Shown: one piece after another, positions 990 to 39,252 of the stretch
How the letters are laid out: each line of letters opens with the position of its first letter
Position numbering within the stretch: position 1 is the stretch's first letter
From: Escherichia phage EcoDS1
Direction: 5' to 3' (one strand)
Sequence record: NC_011042.1
Length of the DNA stretch: 39,252 nt
Position numbers and translations under genes: made by a program
The notes under the pieces: model-generated
What the model saw: only the letters and a program-made list of their open reading frames with translations
Told to the model about the DNA's origin: nothing
The model's database searches: none

Positions 990-1322
990 ATGGAACGTAA
1001 CGCTAACGCATACTATGACCTGCTGGCTGCAACTGTTGAAGCATTTAACGAGCGCATTCAGTACGACAAGATAGCTGAAGGTGATGACTACCACGATGCG
1101 CTGCATGAAGTTGTAGACGGTCAGGTTCCGCACTATTACCACGAGATCTTCACGGTGATGGCTGCTGATGGTATTGACCATGAGTTCGAAGACTCTGGGC
1201 TGATGCCTGATACCAAGGACGTAACGCGTATACTACAAGCTCGCATCTATGAGGCACTGTATAACGATGTGTCTAATAGCTCGGATGTGGTCTGGTTCGA
1301 ACCTGAGGAGGACTGCGAGTGA
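990..1322 (+). CDS. ocr: Ocr (gp0.3) DNA-mimic anti-restriction protein
   Basis: 110-aa acidic protein; VPHYYHEIFTVMAADGIDHEFEDSGLMPDTKDV..RILQARIYE aligns closely with T7 Ocr. ATG at 990 follows a GAGAGG RBS; the ORF-track start at 975 is an in-frame TTG. Confidence 0.9.
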   Translation: MERNANAYYDLLAATVEAFNERIQYDKIAEGDDYHDALHEVVDGQVPHYYHEIFTVMAADGIDHEFEDSGLMPDTKDVTRILQARIYEALYNDVSNSSDVVWFEPEEDCE

Positions 1323-1474
1323 TGGTAACTTACGGTCTCTGTCAGCATCATGTCACCAACGCCCGGATTATGGTCAAGACCGGGCAGTTAAACCACGATG
1401 CGACTATGCGTCACCTGAAGGCGGTCTATGAGGGACGCAAGCGTATCCACGACAGTTTGCACGCTGAGGTGTAA
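1322..1474 (+). CDS. Small early protein (50 aa), gene 0.4 position
   Basis: ATG overlaps the ocr stop (TGATG); GAGGAGG sits 10 nt upstream; open to TAA at 1472..1474. Below the 60-aa ORF-track cutoff. Confidence 0.4.
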   Translation: MVTYGLCQHHVTNARIMVKTGQLNHDATMRHLKAVYEGRKRIHDSLHAEV

Positions 1475-1562
1475 CTTACTGGCTGGTACTGAGTGATAGA
1501 CGAGAGGTCATCGACTGATAGGTGGCCTCAAAGATTACCACTTGCATTAATAGGAGTTAACT

Positions 1563-1652
1563 ATGAGTGTGGGATATTGGGTCTGCCTAGCGCCAGTTAT
1601 GTGGATGATAGGCTATGGGTTATACGACTGTATTAAACGGAAATCACTATGA
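1563..1652 (+). CDS. Small hydrophobic peptide (29 aa)
   Basis: AGGAG RBS upstream; MSVGYWVCLAPVMWMIGYGLY is hydrophobic; its stop overlaps the next ATG (ATGA). Confidence 0.3.
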   Translation: MSVGYWVCLAPVMWMIGYGLYDCIKRKSL

Positions 1653-1846
1653 GTCTTGCACTATTGATAGCCATAGGCTATGGACTTATCGCCTACGTGC
1701 TGGTGAGAGACCTCAACAAAGCGCGTAAAGTCTACAAATTCAACTATGTACGTCTGGGTCGCTGGACTGTACGTCAACCTAACGGAAGATTCATGCGCAA
1801 CTTAGCGAACGTCTGGGATATAGCAACACTTGGGAGCAAACTGTAA
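1649..1846 (+). CDS. Small early protein (65 aa) with N-terminal transmembrane helix
   Basis: ORF track; N-terminus LALLIAIGYGLIAYVLV is TM-like; coupled to flanking ORFs by overlapping start/stop codons. Confidence 0.5.
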   Translation: MSLALLIAIGYGLIAYVLVRDLNKARKVYKFNYVRLGRWTVRQPNGRFMRNLANVWDIATLGSKL

Positions 1847-2244
1847 TGAATATGTCAAATCTGGTACACGCAATGGACTCAATCATATCGCTTCGCACAT
1901 TCACTGATAAGAACGGCGTAGAGTGGAAGTACGTCGGCACGGACTCTCGCGGTCGCGACTACTGGGAGAAGACCGGGAACAAGACCGCTTATGTACATCG
2001 ACACTCGTCACACGCCGCACGTCAACAGCAGGAGCGTGACCGTGTACTACAGGCACGACTCCGGGCAGAGGGCCATAAGTCTGAGCTGCTGTGTCTGGCG
2101 TATGGTGGACGACCAATCACCGACGATGGTAAACTTCTGGTCTCAGGCTGGAAGGCGATAGACCAACGGTCAACCATCAAGCACACGACTCATGGTGACT
2201 TCAGTCATCTTCACGCTAACCCACTGATATGCAAGGTATTCTGA
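1846..2244 (+). CDS. Early protein of unknown function (132 aa)
   Basis: ORF track; TAATG coupling to the upstream ORF; occupies the position of T7 gene 0.7 but is far shorter and has no kinase motifs I recognise. Confidence 0.6.
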   Translation: MNMSNLVHAMDSIISLRTFTDKNGVEWKYVGTDSRGRDYWEKTGNKTAYVHRHSSHAARQQQERDRVLQARLRAEGHKSELLCLAYGGRPITDDGKLLVSGWKAIDQRSTIKHTTHGDFSHLHANPLICKVF

Positions 2245-2266
2245 CTTAACTATCACTATAGGACTC
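2244..2266 (+). promoter_or_regulatory. Phage-RNAP promoter upstream of gene 1
   Basis: ACTTAACTATCACTATAGGACTC matches the 11-copy consensus (-17..+6, +1 G at 2261). Confidence 0.7.
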
Positions 2267-2335: not shown

Positions 2336-5017
2336 ATGAGCGTCATCTCTATTGACAAACACGACTTCTCTGATGTGTCGAACGCCATTGAGCCGTTTAA
2401 CCTGCTGGCTGACCACTACGGGCAAGATCTTGCAGTCAAACAGCTTCAGCTTGAGCATGAGGCATACACTGAAGGCGAGCGACGTTTCATCAAGAACCTT
2501 GAGCGCCAGACTGAGCGCGGGGAACTGGCAGACAATCAGGTCGCCAAGCCTCTTATGCAGACTCTGGTACCTAAGATTGCGCAAGCCGTCAGGGAGTGGC
2601 ATGAAGGTCCAGACGGGAAGCTGTCAACCTCTCGTCCTAGCGTAGCGTTCACCATGTTGAGCACTGAAGAGAAGGCCGTCAAGGATCGCTCTCTTCGTAT
2701 CTCTTGCGAGTCTGCTTCGGTCATCATACTGAAGGTCATACTCTCCAAGCTGGTCAAGCCTGAAGGGATACCGATTACACCGATGGCCTCCGCGATAGGT
2801 CGCACACTTGAGGATGAAATCCGCTTCGGGCGCATTCGTGACAAGGAGAAAGAGCACTTCAAGAAGGCGATAGCTGATAACCTGAACAAGCGAGCTGGGG
2901 CATCCTACAAGAAAGCCTACATGCAAGCGGTTGAGACATCCATGCTGGAGCAGGGTCAACTGGAAGATGCGTGGGGAACTTGGAGTCCTACAGAGGCTGT
3001 CCACGTTGGCATCAAGATGCTTGAGATTGTCATCCAGTCAACACAACTGGTCGAGCTTAAGCGGTACGGTGCTGGCAATGCAGCGGCTGACGTAGAGATG
3101 GTCCACCTGTCAGACTTCTGGGTCAAGAAGATGGCACAACGAGGATTCAGCCTAGCGGGTATCGCTCCAGTCTACCAGCCTTGCGTCGTTCCACCTAAGC
3201 CGTGGACTGGTGTAGTAGGCGGTGGGTACTGGGCCAAGGGTCGCAGACCACTACCACTGATTCGCTTAGGGTCTAAGTCTGCGGTGGCACGTTACGAAGA
3301 CGTGTACATGCCTGAAGTCTATGACGCTGTGAATATCATCCAGAATACACCTTGGAAAGTTAACAAGAAGGTGCTGGAAGTGGTGAACATGGTCGAGAAG
3401 CTGAACAACACGCCTATTGATGACATCCCTCAGATGGAACCGCTGAAGCCTGAAGACTATGCAGGTGAGACTGAAGAGGAACTCAAGGCATGGAAGAAGG
3501 CTGCTGCTGGTATCTACCGCCGAGAGAAGGCCCGGCAGTCACGTAGATTGTCACTAAGCTTTATCGTCAACCAAGCGAACAAGTTCTCTCAATTCAAGGC
3601 CATATGGTTTCCGTACAATATGGACTGGCGCGGCCGTGTCTACGCTGTTCCGATGTTCAACCCTCAAGGTAATGACATGCAGAAGGGCCTTCTGACTCTG
3701 GCAGTCGGTAAGCCTATTGGTGCCGATGGGTTTAAATGGCTGAAGGTCCACGGTGCAAACTGCGCGGGTATCGATAAAGTAACCTTCGAGGAGCGCATCA
3801 AGTGGGTGGAGGACAACCACGACAACATCATGGCTACTGCTAAGGCACCGATGGATAGCATTGAGTGGTGGGGCAAGTTAGACTCTCCGTTTTGCTTCCT
3901 TGCGTTCTGCTTCGAGTATGCTGGCGTGATGCATCACGGATTGTCTTACTCCTGCTCGCTGCCAATAGCTTTCGATGGGTCCTGCTCTGGGATTCAGCAC
4001 TTCAGCGCGATGCTTCGTGATCACATCGGTGGACATGCAGTAAACCTGACGCCTTCCGGTAAGGTCCAAGACATCTACCGCATCGTGTCTGACCGCATTG
4101 AGGAGGAGCTTAAAGTCCTGCTGGTTAACGGCACGGACAACGAGATGGTAACTCACGAGGACAAGAAAACTGGTGAGATTACCGAACGTCTCAAGCTGGG
4201 GACACGAGAGCTGGCCCGGCAGTGGCTTACTTACGGCATGTCACGTAAGGTCACTAAGCGTTCGGTCATGACTCTGGCCTACGGGTCGAAAGAGTATGGC
4301 TTCGCAGACCAAGTTTACGAGGACATCGTGATGCCAGCGATTGACTCAGGGTCTGGCGCTATGTTCACTGAACCAAGCCAAGCGTCTCGCTTCATGGCTA
4401 AGATGATTTGGGAAGCTGTGAGCGTGACCGTAGTTGCTGCGGTTGACGCGATGAAGTGGCTTCAAGGTGCTGCCAAGCTGCTGGCTGCTGAAGTGAAAGA
4501 CAAGAAGACTGGAGAAATCCTGAAGCCTTGCCTTCCGGTACACTGGGTCACACCTGATGGGTTCCCGGTCTGGCAGGAATACCGCAAGAAGGATACCACT
4601 CGTCTGAACCTGATGTTCTTAGGGTCATTCAACCTTCAACCTACGGTCAACAAAGGCACGAAGAAAGAGTTGGATAAGCACAAGCAGGAGTCGGGCATTA
4701 GCCCGAACTTCGTCCACTCACAAGATGGTAGCCACCTCCGCAAGACTGTAGTCCACACGCACCGCAAGTATGGCGTGATGTCATTCGCAGTGATTCACGA
4801 TAGCTTCGGGACCATCCCGGCTGACGCTGAGTATCTGTTCCGTGGTGTCCGTGAGACGATGGTCGAGACCTACCGCGACAACGATGTGCTGCTTGACTTC
4901 TACGAGCAGTTCGAATACCAGCTTCACGAGAGCCAGCGCGACAAGTTGCCTGAGCTTCCGAAGAAAGGTAAACTGAATATCGAAGACATCTTGTCTTCAG
5001 ACTTTGCATTCGCTTAA
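2336..5017 (+). CDS. T7-type single-subunit DNA-directed RNA polymerase (gp1)
   Basis: 893 aa; long stretches match T7 RNAP (CVVPPKPWTG, AIWFPYNMDWRGRVYAV, DSPFCFLAFCFEYAGV, LPIAFDGSCSGIQHFSAMLRD, HDSFGT, C-terminal FAFA). Confidence 0.98.
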   Translation: MSVISIDKHDFSDVSNAIEPFNLLADHYGQDLAVKQLQLEHEAYTEGERRFIKNLERQTERGELADNQVAKPLMQTLVPKIAQAVREWHEGPDGKLSTSRPSVAFTMLSTEEKAVKDRSLRISCESASVIILKVILSKLVKPEGIPITPMASAIGRTLEDEIRFGRIRDKEKEHFKKAIADNLNKRAGASYKKAYMQAVETSMLEQGQLEDAWGTWSPTEAVHVGIKMLEIVIQSTQLVELKRYGAGNAAADVEMVHLSDFWVKKMAQRGFSLAGIAPVYQPCVVPPKPWTGVVGGGYWAKGRRPLPLIRLGSKSAVARYEDVYMPEVYDAVNIIQNTPWKVNKKVLEVVNMVEKLNNTPIDDIPQMEPLKPEDYAGETEEELKAWKKAAAGIYRREKARQSRRLSLSFIVNQANKFSQFKAIWFPYNMDWRGRVYAVPMFNPQGNDMQKGLLTLAVGKPIGADGFKWLKVHGANCAGIDKVTFEERIKWVEDNHDNIMATAKAPMDSIEWWGKLDSPFCFLAFCFEYAGVMHHGLSYSCSLPIAFDGSCSGIQHFSAMLRDHIGGHAVNLTPSGKVQDIYRIVSDRIEEELKVLLVNGTDNEMVTHEDKKTGEITERLKLGTRELARQWLTYGMSRKVTKRSVMTLAYGSKEYGFADQVYEDIVMPAIDSGSGAMFTEPSQASRFMAKMIWEAVSVTVVAAVDAMKWLQGAAKLLAAEVKDKKTGEILKPCLPVHWVTPDGFPVWQEYRKKDTTRLNLMFLGSFNLQPTVNKGTKKELDKHKQESGISPNFVHSQDGSHLRKTVVHTHRKYGVMSFAVIHDSFGTIPADAEYLFRGVRETMVETYRDNDVLLDFYEQFEYQLHESQRDKLPELPKKGKLNIEDILSSDFAFA

Positions 5018-39074: not shown

Positions 39075-39252
39075 TCTCACAGTTCAAGAACCTCAAGTCT
39101 CCCCATAGGCCCTCTTTCAGTCCAGACCAAAGGCCCTACCCCAGTCTATCATAAGGTTGGACCGATGGTCAAGACGTTAGGTCGACGATAGGTTGCGGCT
39201 ATGGCTTAGGGAAGGACGATAGGTAGGGACTATGGGTCTTCTTTGAGTCTCT
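39075..39252. repeat. Right direct terminal repeat (DTR), 178 bp
   Basis: Identical to 1..178. Confidence 0.9.

Follow-up and report, generated by a model that had tools for sequence, protein, structure and literature searches.

The small-ORF block of Escherichia phage EcoDS1 sits between ocr (990-1322) and the gene 1 RNA polymerase (2336-5017). The window, meaning the whole analysed stretch of 39,252 nucleotides (NC_011042.1), carries a 178-bp exact terminal repeat and is a complete Kayfunavirus genome. Over the early region, the closest genomes are also Kayfunavirus and are 88-95% identical. The features of the block and its borders are listed here.

990-1322, plus strand: ocr (gene 0.3), DNA-mimic anti-restriction protein of 110 aa (PF08684, phrog_2568).
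1322-1474, plus strand: ORF1, 50 aa, gene 0.35 of K1F/EcoDS1; its start overlaps the ocr stop.
1491-1543, plus strand: conserved hairpin, by alignment a homolog of the T7 RNase III site R0.5, inside the 88-nt ORF1-ORF2 gap.
1563-1652, plus strand: ORF2, hydrophobic micro-protein of 29 aa with a basic C-terminus (IKRKSL); AGGAG Shine-Dalgarno sequence at 1552-1556.
1649-1846, plus strand: ORF3, 65 aa, gene 0.37; N-terminal TM helix and basic C-terminal domain (GRWTVRQPNGRFMRNLANVWDIATLGSKL); overlaps ORF2.
1846-2244, plus strand: ORF4, 132 aa, gene 0.38; overlaps ORF3.
1846-1983, plus strand: N-module of ORF4, optional; β-hairpin, DSRGRxYW.
1984-2244, plus strand: core of ORF4, conserved; three helices and the invariant tail HTTxGDFSHL.
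2245-2263, plus strand: promoter of K1F type for the phage RNA polymerase (CTTAACTATCACTATAGG), in the space separating ORF4 from gene 1; the small-ORF block has its 3' boundary here.
2336-5017, plus strand: gene 1, single-subunit RNA polymerase of 893 aa, taken from the ORF list; all relatives annotate RNA polymerase.

The ocr product matches Pfam PF08684 (E 2e-32, 112 bits against a gathering cutoff of 25) and phrog_2568 (E 9e-54), and it is 53% identical to T7 gp0.3. Downstream of it, an earlier note on this DNA had described four small ORFs of 50, 29, 65 and 132 aa as one chain, coupled by overlapping start and stop codons. All four ORFs are found, and three of the junctions do overlap: ocr/ORF1 by 1 nt (TGATG), ORF2/ORF3 by 4 nt (ATGA) and ORF3/ORF4 by 1 nt (TAATG). 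ORF1 and ORF2, however, are parted by 88 nt (1475-1562) and are not coupled. Because of this gap, the block contains two coupled groups and not a single chain of four. Judged from substitution patterns, all four are genuine coding genes under purifying selection and not chance ORFs. The in-frame dN/dS is 0.25 for ORF1, 0.15 for ORF2, 0.32 for ORF3, 0.23 for the ORF4 core and 0.32 for the ORF4 N-module, while the other two frames give 0.84-1.94. The case in which the small ORFs would be untranslated, raised in the earlier note against its own proposal, came out negative by the same ratios. Matching genes are annotated as 0.35, 0.37 and 0.38 in SEA1f, Bas105, SH3 and K1F, and the four small genes between ocr and the polymerase gene are the standard, already annotated early set of K1F-like phages (Kayfunavirus). 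The oddity of the region relative to T7 had been overstated, as this layout is the normal one and about four fifths of the relatives are kinase-free. Early regions that carry these small genes and lack the kinase are the norm in the annotation of more than 200 sequenced K1F-like phages, and the observation as such matters little. A literature search on gp0.35, gp0.37, gp0.38 and EcoDS1 returned no functional study.

ORF1 shows a specific relationship to T7 gp0.4, whose gene the earlier note had treated as a T7-only feature. It matches phrog_5058 (E 9e-29), and the ORF1 and T7 gp0.4 (phrog_7202) families cross-match reciprocally in PHROG at 2.4e-5 and 9e-5. Comparison of the two families with hhalign gives 93% probability and E 3.4e-7 over 40 columns, a homology carried by about 40 aligned residues in low-diversity profiles (Neff ~1.4). 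The two proteins are 39% identical over 41 residues, and their Smith-Waterman score of 51 is matched by 0 of 5000 shuffles. An intermediate Przondovirus sequence is also significant (score 74, 0 of 3000 shuffles). PF26807 (Phage_T7_GP04) is precomputed on the ORF1-type relatives P0257, L063 and L064; this support is indirect for ORF1, because the local Pfam copy does not contain PF26807. The genomic slot is the same as well. TGATG lies at 1320-1324 here, gene 0.3 of T7 ends and gene 0.4 starts at 1278, and R0.5 or its homolog follows downstream. ORF1 thus has both the similarity to T7 gp0.4 and the position of a ~50-aa gene that overlaps the 0.3 stop and precedes R0.5, and on this evidence it is a diverged remote homolog of T7 gp0.4.

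T7 gp0.4 is described as an FtsZ inhibitor (Kiro et al. 2013, as cited in PMC9372555). FtsZ mislocalisation and filamentation occur in K1F infection (PMC9372555), and K1F was reported to be without gene 0.4, BLAST finding none, and its FtsZ-inhibiting peptide was declared unknown (Dhanoa et al. 2022, PMC9372555). In K1F-type infections, ORF1 may be the peptide that prevents the FtsZ ring from assembling. The two proteins are alike in size, slot and profile, but they are strongly diverged and fall in separate PHROG families; FtsZ binding in the ORF1 branch is putative, and at 39% identity the function may not be conserved. Through its link to gp0.4, gp0.35 becomes a concrete testable candidate for the peptide sought by Dhanoa et al. 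2022.

The gap between ORF1 and ORF2, overlooked in the earlier note, holds the conserved hairpin. It aligns with T7 nt 1426-1486 (GAGTGATAGAC...GATTATCACTT). Over 16 aligned sequences, 19 columns are invariant; AGTGATA and TGATT, which form the cores of the GAGTGATAG...GATTATCACTT arms, are part of them. The RNAalifold consensus contains 15 pairs, 4 of them with compensatory changes on both sides. Folded alone, the EcoDS1 hairpin reaches -24.2 kcal/mol (z -1.6), modestly better than shuffles, and an Rfam search of the intergenic RNAs matched no family. The alignment, the location after the gene 0.4 homolog and the pairing kept by compensatory changes identify the hairpin, at the level of sequence comparison, as a homolog of T7 R0.5. 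We expect RNase III to cleave at this hairpin, which would give the region the same division into two early mRNAs that T7 has.

Two of the ORFs had been predicted to contain TM helices. This holds well for ORF3, whose residues 3-19 reach a Kyte-Doolittle value of 2.52, a strong hydrophobicity (pI 11). ORF2 is borderline at 1.45, under the classical TM threshold, and is probably a membrane micro-protein. Homologs are annotated as transmembrane by others in CR8 (TMHMM) and EPr2. ORF3 belongs to the gp0.37 family of Kayfunavirus (phrog_2385, E 3e-32), with homologs in 220 phage records and 119 protein clusters; one K1F record names it 0.6, and CR8 has it as 0.71. Its dN/dS falls to 0.26 in the C-domain, and the protein stays about 80% identical even in phages with an ORF4 homolog that is only about 35% identical. 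ORF3 appears to combine an N-terminal membrane anchor with an extremely conserved basic domain, which would be cytoplasmic by the positive-inside rule. ORF4 is 100% identical to EcoDS1 Gp0.38 and belongs to the Kayfunavirus gp0.38 family (phrog_7066, E 8e-45). As had been said of the 132-aa protein, it matches no known motif; it matches no known fold either. Searched exhaustively with HMMER, 1.8 billion representatives yield only 15 clusters of homologs, all small phage proteins and none of about 360 aa. ORF4 is predicted to be a soluble basic helical protein, most conserved in a C-terminal peptide that is probably disordered. ORF3 and the ORF4 core are present directly upstream of gene 1 in 28 of 28 surveyed related loci, and distant phages with SAMase in place of ocr still have the pair and its 1-nt overlap. 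In some phages, a homing endonuclease can separate the two. They are conserved orphan protein families under strong constraint. Duplication of the ORF3 TM segment as the origin of ORF2 is unproven: the two have IGYGL in common, hhalign gives 9%, and a natural ORF2::ORF3 fusion exists.

A gp0.7 kinase gene is absent, as the earlier note had stated. The tblastn searches with T7 gp0.7 and the 244-aa kinase of MC06, over all six frames of the whole window, give best E values of 1.1 and 2.0, and ORF1-4 show no kinase match in PHROG (phrog_2828 / phrog_15752) or Pfam. A split or degenerate kinase across the small ORFs, the finding that would have overturned that statement, is absent from the same tblastn searches. 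Among related genomes, the kinase is carried by 10 of 28 surveyed loci, and about 47 phage records have it against about 213 with ORF3, which is about a fifth. In the Kayfunavirus clade it is 244 aa long, a kinase domain only, without the C-terminal domain. Where present (for example, in Enterobacter phage vB_VIPECLMC06), this short gp0.7-type cassette (phrog_15752) fills the exact slot of the EcoDS1 hairpin, with orthologous flanking genes and two flanking copies of the hairpin. Two copies bracket the kinase in relatives L004 and L020, and EcoDS1 has a single copy. The kinase is an optional cassette absent here, not a degraded gene. EcoDS1 carries the single-hairpin, kinase-free state, and recombination between hairpin copies may be how the cassette is gained or lost. 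A kinase cassette between duplicated RNase III hairpins would be a simple recombination route for mosaic T7-like early regions. Other cassettes that come and go in this mosaic region near ocr are a 41-aa gene, a 115-aa HTH gene and a 55-aa TM gene; the 41-aa gene follows ORF1 in the closest relatives and is gone from the EcoDS1 stretch. A complementary distribution of ORF3/ORF4 and the full-length kinase was considered and is rejected, because Przondovirus combines an ORF3-like gene with a full kinase.

The early regions of K1F and EcoDS1 (0.3, 0.35, (0.36), 0.37, 0.38, 1) are alike in gene order, show 77-100% protein identity and are both kinase-free. They differ in gene 0.36, a 55-aa two-TM gene found in K1F in place of the 29-aa ORF2, and in gp0.38, which in K1F is the 86-aa core-only form against the 132-aa ORF4 here. 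In T7 the order is 0.3 - 0.4 - R0.5 - 0.5 - 0.6A/B - 0.7 - R1 - gene 1. EcoDS1 resembles it in having ocr, then a gp0.4 homolog whose start overlaps the stop of ocr, the homologous R0.5 hairpin, further small proteins as a second group headed by a hydrophobic peptide, and gene 1. In contrast to T7, gp0.5, gp0.6 and gp0.7 have no detectable homologs among its small ORFs, and ORF3 and ORF4 have no T7 counterpart. Przondovirus (KP32-like) has a gp0.4-like 46-aa gene and then an ORF3-like 65-aa TM protein upstream of gene 1, the latter clearly similar to ORF3 (Smith-Waterman 111, 0 of 3000 shuffles). It differs in having the full-length kinase, and ORF4 shows no significant similarity to the 71-aa gene that follows the ORF3-like one there (p = 0.14).

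We consider it likely, with a probability of roughly 0.75, that the region is a K1F-like early block with a gp0.4-type ORF1, an R0.5 homolog, a kinase-free state and ORF3/ORF4 acting at the inner membrane. The whole region would be the class I host-takeover block, transcribed early by the host RNA polymerase. Its organisation would be T7-like, with two translationally coupled groups, ocr with ORF1 and ORF2-ORF3-ORF4, split by the RNase III processing hairpin.

Several other readings of the small ORFs were weighed against this one. That some of them, especially the 29-aa ORF2, are untranslated chance ORFs in a transcribed spacer is very improbable. Most database annotations do omit ORF2 (Bas105 annotates it, SEA1f and SH3 do not); of 28 related loci, 17 have it intact at exactly 29 aa, 2 have it slightly altered and 9 lack it, and SEA1f has a 27-aa variant. 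Against this, the ORF2 dN/dS of 0.15 compares with 1.3-1.45 off-frame (17 sequences), the length is constant at 29 codons despite 55-93% identity, the AGGAG-type Shine-Dalgarno sequence 6 nt upstream is kept in most loci together with the stop/start overlap with ORF3, and relative L029 has a natural in-frame ORF2::ORF3 fusion. Still less credible is the reading of the small ORFs as a split or degenerate gp0.7 kinase, or of ORF4 as a free-standing C-terminal host-shutoff domain of gp0.7. The place just upstream of gene 1 is held by ORF4 here and by gp0.7 in T7, the 244-aa Kayfunavirus kinase is without that C-terminal domain, and the basic helix of ORF4 superficially resembles gp0.7 residues 243-265, with a GDF tripeptide in both. 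Nothing in tblastn falls below E = 1, however, and ORF4 compares with the gp0.7 C-terminal domain (PF27024) at a BLAST E of about 1.4 and, in the profile comparison of the two families, at an hhalign probability of 2.5%. The exhaustive HMM search with the ORF4 family returns no proteins of gp0.7 length, and kinase-bearing relatives keep ORF4 unchanged, so that this reading is refuted at the sequence level. It is also improbable, although less so, that ORF3 and ORF2 are the counterparts of T7 gp0.6 (the MreB inhibitor) and gp0.5. The name 0.6 in the first K1F record, the location after R0.5 as for 0.5 and 0.6 in T7, the basic C-terminus of both small hydrophobic peptides ORF2 and gp0.5, and the short stretch TVxxPxGxxM in which ORF3 resembles gp0.6A speak for it. 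The hhalign probabilities speak against it, at 0.35% for ORF3 with gp0.6A and 0.16% for ORF2 with gp0.5, and ORF3 as gp0.5 is likewise below 1%. The pairwise Smith-Waterman score does not exceed that of shuffled sequences (p = 0.16), and the TM anchor of ORF3 has no equivalent in gp0.6A.

The adjacency and coupling of ORF3 and ORF4 suggest a physical partnership, and a conserved host factor may be their joint target at the inner membrane. In its full form, the proposal is that they make up an unrecognised membrane-tethered two-protein effector across Kayfunavirus and related Studiervirinae, with the near-invariant cytoplasmic domain of ORF3 and the GDFSHL tail of ORF4 capturing a conserved host protein at the inner membrane, and that, separately, ORF1 is the K1F FtsZ inhibitor; we hold this as tentative. 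Somewhat doubtful is the view that ORF2-ORF4 are counter-defence (anti-immunity) genes against strain-specific defence systems and not inhibitors of core physiology. Counter-defence genes are enriched in accessory regions around ocr (bioRxiv 10.1101/2023.04.06.535777), the ORFs adjoin ocr in the mosaic region of come-and-go cassettes, and the N-module of ORF4 is variable. ORF3 and the ORF4 core are, however, not accessory, and ORF3 is nearly invariant across genera; because of this universality and near-invariance, a conserved housekeeping target fits better than a variable defence system. The ORF1-4 peptides have no match in the accessory-gene screen supplements examined from the same preprint, PADLOC gives no matches, and searches by homolog, fold and defence database give no target hints for ORF2-ORF4. 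If the two-protein effector is real, it would be a host-takeover mechanism without a T7 counterpart. Both gp0.37 and gp0.38 are early-expressed in therapeutic-candidate phages (K1F, LM33_P1, CLB_P1 relatives), and their targets are worth identifying.

The early block ends at the phage promoter directly upstream of gene 1, a place where T7 has none. The CACTATAGG sites number 9 against 0.2 expected, this promoter among them; they all lie on the plus strand and have an extended consensus in common. A promoter-like site is found at the matching position in 27 of the 28 related loci.

The window is a complete linear T7-like genome, as shown by an exact 178-bp direct terminal repeat (1-178 and 39075-39252). 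After the left terminal repeat come ATAACCATAAGTCA-type tandem repeats, at ~240-300. Upstream of ocr, the plus strand has a strong sigma-70-like promoter (TTGACA-18-TAGCAT, 609-638) and a second one (TTGACA) at ~764-800, which are probably counterparts of T7 A1-A3 and probably drive the early block. The region comprises:

990-1322, ocr (Pfam ocr, E 2e-32)
1322-1474, ORF1, 50 aa, same strand as ORF2-ORF4
1563-1652, ORF2, 29 aa, same strand as ORF1, ORF3 and ORF4
1649-1846, ORF3, 65 aa, same strand as ORF1, ORF2 and ORF4
1846-2244, ORF4, 132 aa, same strand as ORF1-ORF3
2336-5017, RNA polymerase gene (gene 1), downstream of ORF4

The four small ORFs that the earlier note placed downstream of ocr are all present. 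Their description as a single chain is only partly retained: three junctions overlap (ocr/ORF1 TGATG, ORF2/ORF3 ATGA and ORF3/ORF4 TAATG), but 88 nt separate ORF1 from ORF2, so that there are two coupled groups and not one chain of four.

Nei-Gojobori counts on between 6 and 27 orthologs of each ORF, taken from related loci, give in-frame dN/dS values of 0.25 for ORF1, 0.15 for ORF2, 0.32 for ORF3, 0.23 for the ORF4 core and 0.32 for the ORF4 N-module; the two alternative frames give 0.84-1.94. Judged from these substitution patterns, ORF1-ORF4 are genes. ORF2, absent from most annotations, is intact at 29 codons in 17 of 28 related loci (slightly altered in 2 more), abuts ORF3 in every case, and has an AGGAG-type Shine-Dalgarno sequence 6 nt upstream, conserved in most copies.

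Megablast assigns the region to the genus Kayfunavirus (K1F-like); 245 phage records match, the best being Klebsiella phage SEA1f (94.8%), Bas105 and Citrobacter SH3. The orthologous genes are named 0.35, 0.36, 0.37 and 0.38 in the second of two K1F records and are hypothetical proteins in other relatives; in the BFVD library, ORF4 matches Gp0.38 of Escherichia phage EcoDS1 with 100% identity over 132 aa, so that the window is almost certainly EcoDS1. An early region with four small ORFs and no kinase is ordinary and already annotated in K1F-like phages. The two K1F records differ at gene 0.38: NC_007456 has an in-frame stop near its start (~2214-2246) and leaves it unannotated, while NC_007636 has an intact gp0.38 of 86 aa (2208-2468), a difference due either to sequencing or to strain polymorphism.

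The reported absence of a gp0.7-type kinase gene is borne out. tblastn queries with T7 gp0.7 and with a close relative's 244-aa kinase match nothing in the six frames of the window (best E 1.1 and 2.0, respectively). Nor do these searches show a split or degenerate kinase, and a profile-profile comparison gives only 2.5% probability for ORF4 as a detached gp0.7 C-terminal shutoff domain; the outcome that would have refuted the note is thus negative in both forms. When 1.8 billion representative proteins were searched exhaustively with the ORF4 profile, only 15 clusters came back, all small phage proteins. ORF3 as a kinase substitute is ruled out, since a recognizable ORF3 relative in Przondovirus adjoins a full-length kinase. 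Across the 28 related loci the order is ocr, ORF1, (41-aa gene), (115-aa HTH protein), (244-aa kinase), (55-aa two-TM protein), (29-aa ORF2), ORF3, ORF4 core and gene 1, with genes in parentheses being optional inserts within a fixed frame. The kinase, present in 10 of the 28, matches only the N-terminal kinase domain of gp0.7 (phrog_15752). Genomes without a kinase predominate: the short kinase is in ~47 records of the phage database, against ~213 for ORF3. Whether the kinase is carried is a common polymorphism, and its absence does not reflect gene decay. Among the haplotypes, that of the window is the most compact. It lacks ~113 nt of SEA1f (window 1475-1495 versus L001:1414-1545) encoding the 41-aa gene (phrog_33188). 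Most close relatives have this gene, of which just the final ~8 nt, GGTACTGA, can still be recognized in the window.

The ORF1-ORF2 gap contains GAGTGATAGACGAGAGGTCATC...GGTGGCCTCAAAGATTACCACTT (1491-1543), alignable to T7 nt 1426-1486, where the R0.5 processing site lies between genes 0.4 and 0.5. In T7, R0.5 is assigned to about nt 1468 (Dunn and Studier, 1983). By this alignment the gap is a predicted R0.5 RNase III site. In the consensus fold of 16 sequences, 4 of the 15 pairs show compensatory changes. Two kinase-bearing relatives have hairpin copies both before and after the 244-aa kinase gene (L004, 1531-1590 and 2335-2395; L020, 1518-1575 and 2311-2370), and the window has a single copy. 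This suggests that the kinase cassette is gained or lost by recombination between hairpin copies, which would interconvert kinase-bearing and kinase-free states. As R0.5 does in T7, the hairpin would split the early transcript into two units, one of ocr-0.4 and a second ending before gene 1. The hairpin-bracketed cassette, the conserved R0.5 site and the following link between gp0.35 and gp0.4 are the most useful new points.

ORF1 (phrog_5058) and T7 gp0.4 (phrog_7202) show reciprocal family cross-hits (2.4e-5 and 9e-5), and hhalign aligns the two families over 40 columns with 93% probability (E 3.4e-7). None of 5000 shuffles reached their pairwise score, a Przondovirus protein falls between them, and PF26807 (Phage_T7_GP04), a new Pfam family, has precomputed matches to ORF1-type proteins. 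ORF1 also agrees with T7 gp0.4 in length, in location and in the way it overlaps the ocr stop. These comparisons identify ORF1 as a gp0.4 homolog. Dhanoa et al. (PMC9372555) reported that K1F mislocalizes FtsZ as T7 does and, finding no gene 0.4 in K1F by BLAST, regarded the responsible peptide as unknown. The obvious candidate for it is the ORF1/gp0.35 family.

Neither ORF2 nor ORF3 has a detectable relationship to T7 gp0.5 or gp0.6. The 29-aa ORF2 product is hydrophobic, ends in a basic tail and has borderline hydropathy (1.45). At the N-terminus of ORF3, a strong TM segment (Kyte-Doolittle 2.52) precedes a basic domain (pI 11), which should be cytoplasmic by the positive-inside rule. This C-domain (GRWTVRQPNGRFMRNLANVWDIATLGSKL) keeps ~80% identity where the ORF4 homolog keeps ~35%, in phages with SAMase instead of ocr. 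Natural in-frame fusions join ORF2 (residues 1-27) to ORF3 (37-65) in 47 aa (L029:2447-2590) and ORF1 (1-38) to ORF3 (39-66) in 66 aa (protein P0257). They show that deletions have remodeled the block, and both keep the ORF3 C-domain. In most loci ORF3 and ORF4 overlap by 1 nt, except where a 140-aa endonuclease VII/HNH-like gene, probably a homing endonuclease, lies exactly between them (L010:2695-3120, L021:2686-3108, also L024 and L028).

ORF4, in which the earlier note recognized no motif, indeed has no fold, PDB, Pfam or PADLOC match. Its family has a conserved core of 84-86 aa (motifs ERDxVLxxRxxAEG, YGGxP, DDGKLL and HTTxGDFSHL) and an optional N-module that carries a DSRGRxYW β-hairpin. 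The AlphaFold model (130 sequences) has pLDDT 76, with residues 60-110 helical and above 90; the extreme C-terminus (125-132) is below 50, and the block that contains the invariant GDFSHL motif averages ~54. Such a low-pLDDT C-terminus with an invariant motif fits a docking peptide. In a distant metagenomic relative (L062:457-987), the gene preceding the ORF4 homolog has VGDSRGRWYDRP at its end, resembling the DSRGRxYW motif of the N-module, which may be a mobile mini-domain.

Directly upstream of the RNA polymerase gene, at 2245-2263 (+), is a full-consensus K1F-type phage RNAP promoter, CTTAACTATCACTATAGG; the genome has 9 sites of this kind in all. Unlike T7, the window thereby has a predicted self-transcribing (autogene) layout, and a promoter-like site occupies this position in 27 of the 28 related loci.
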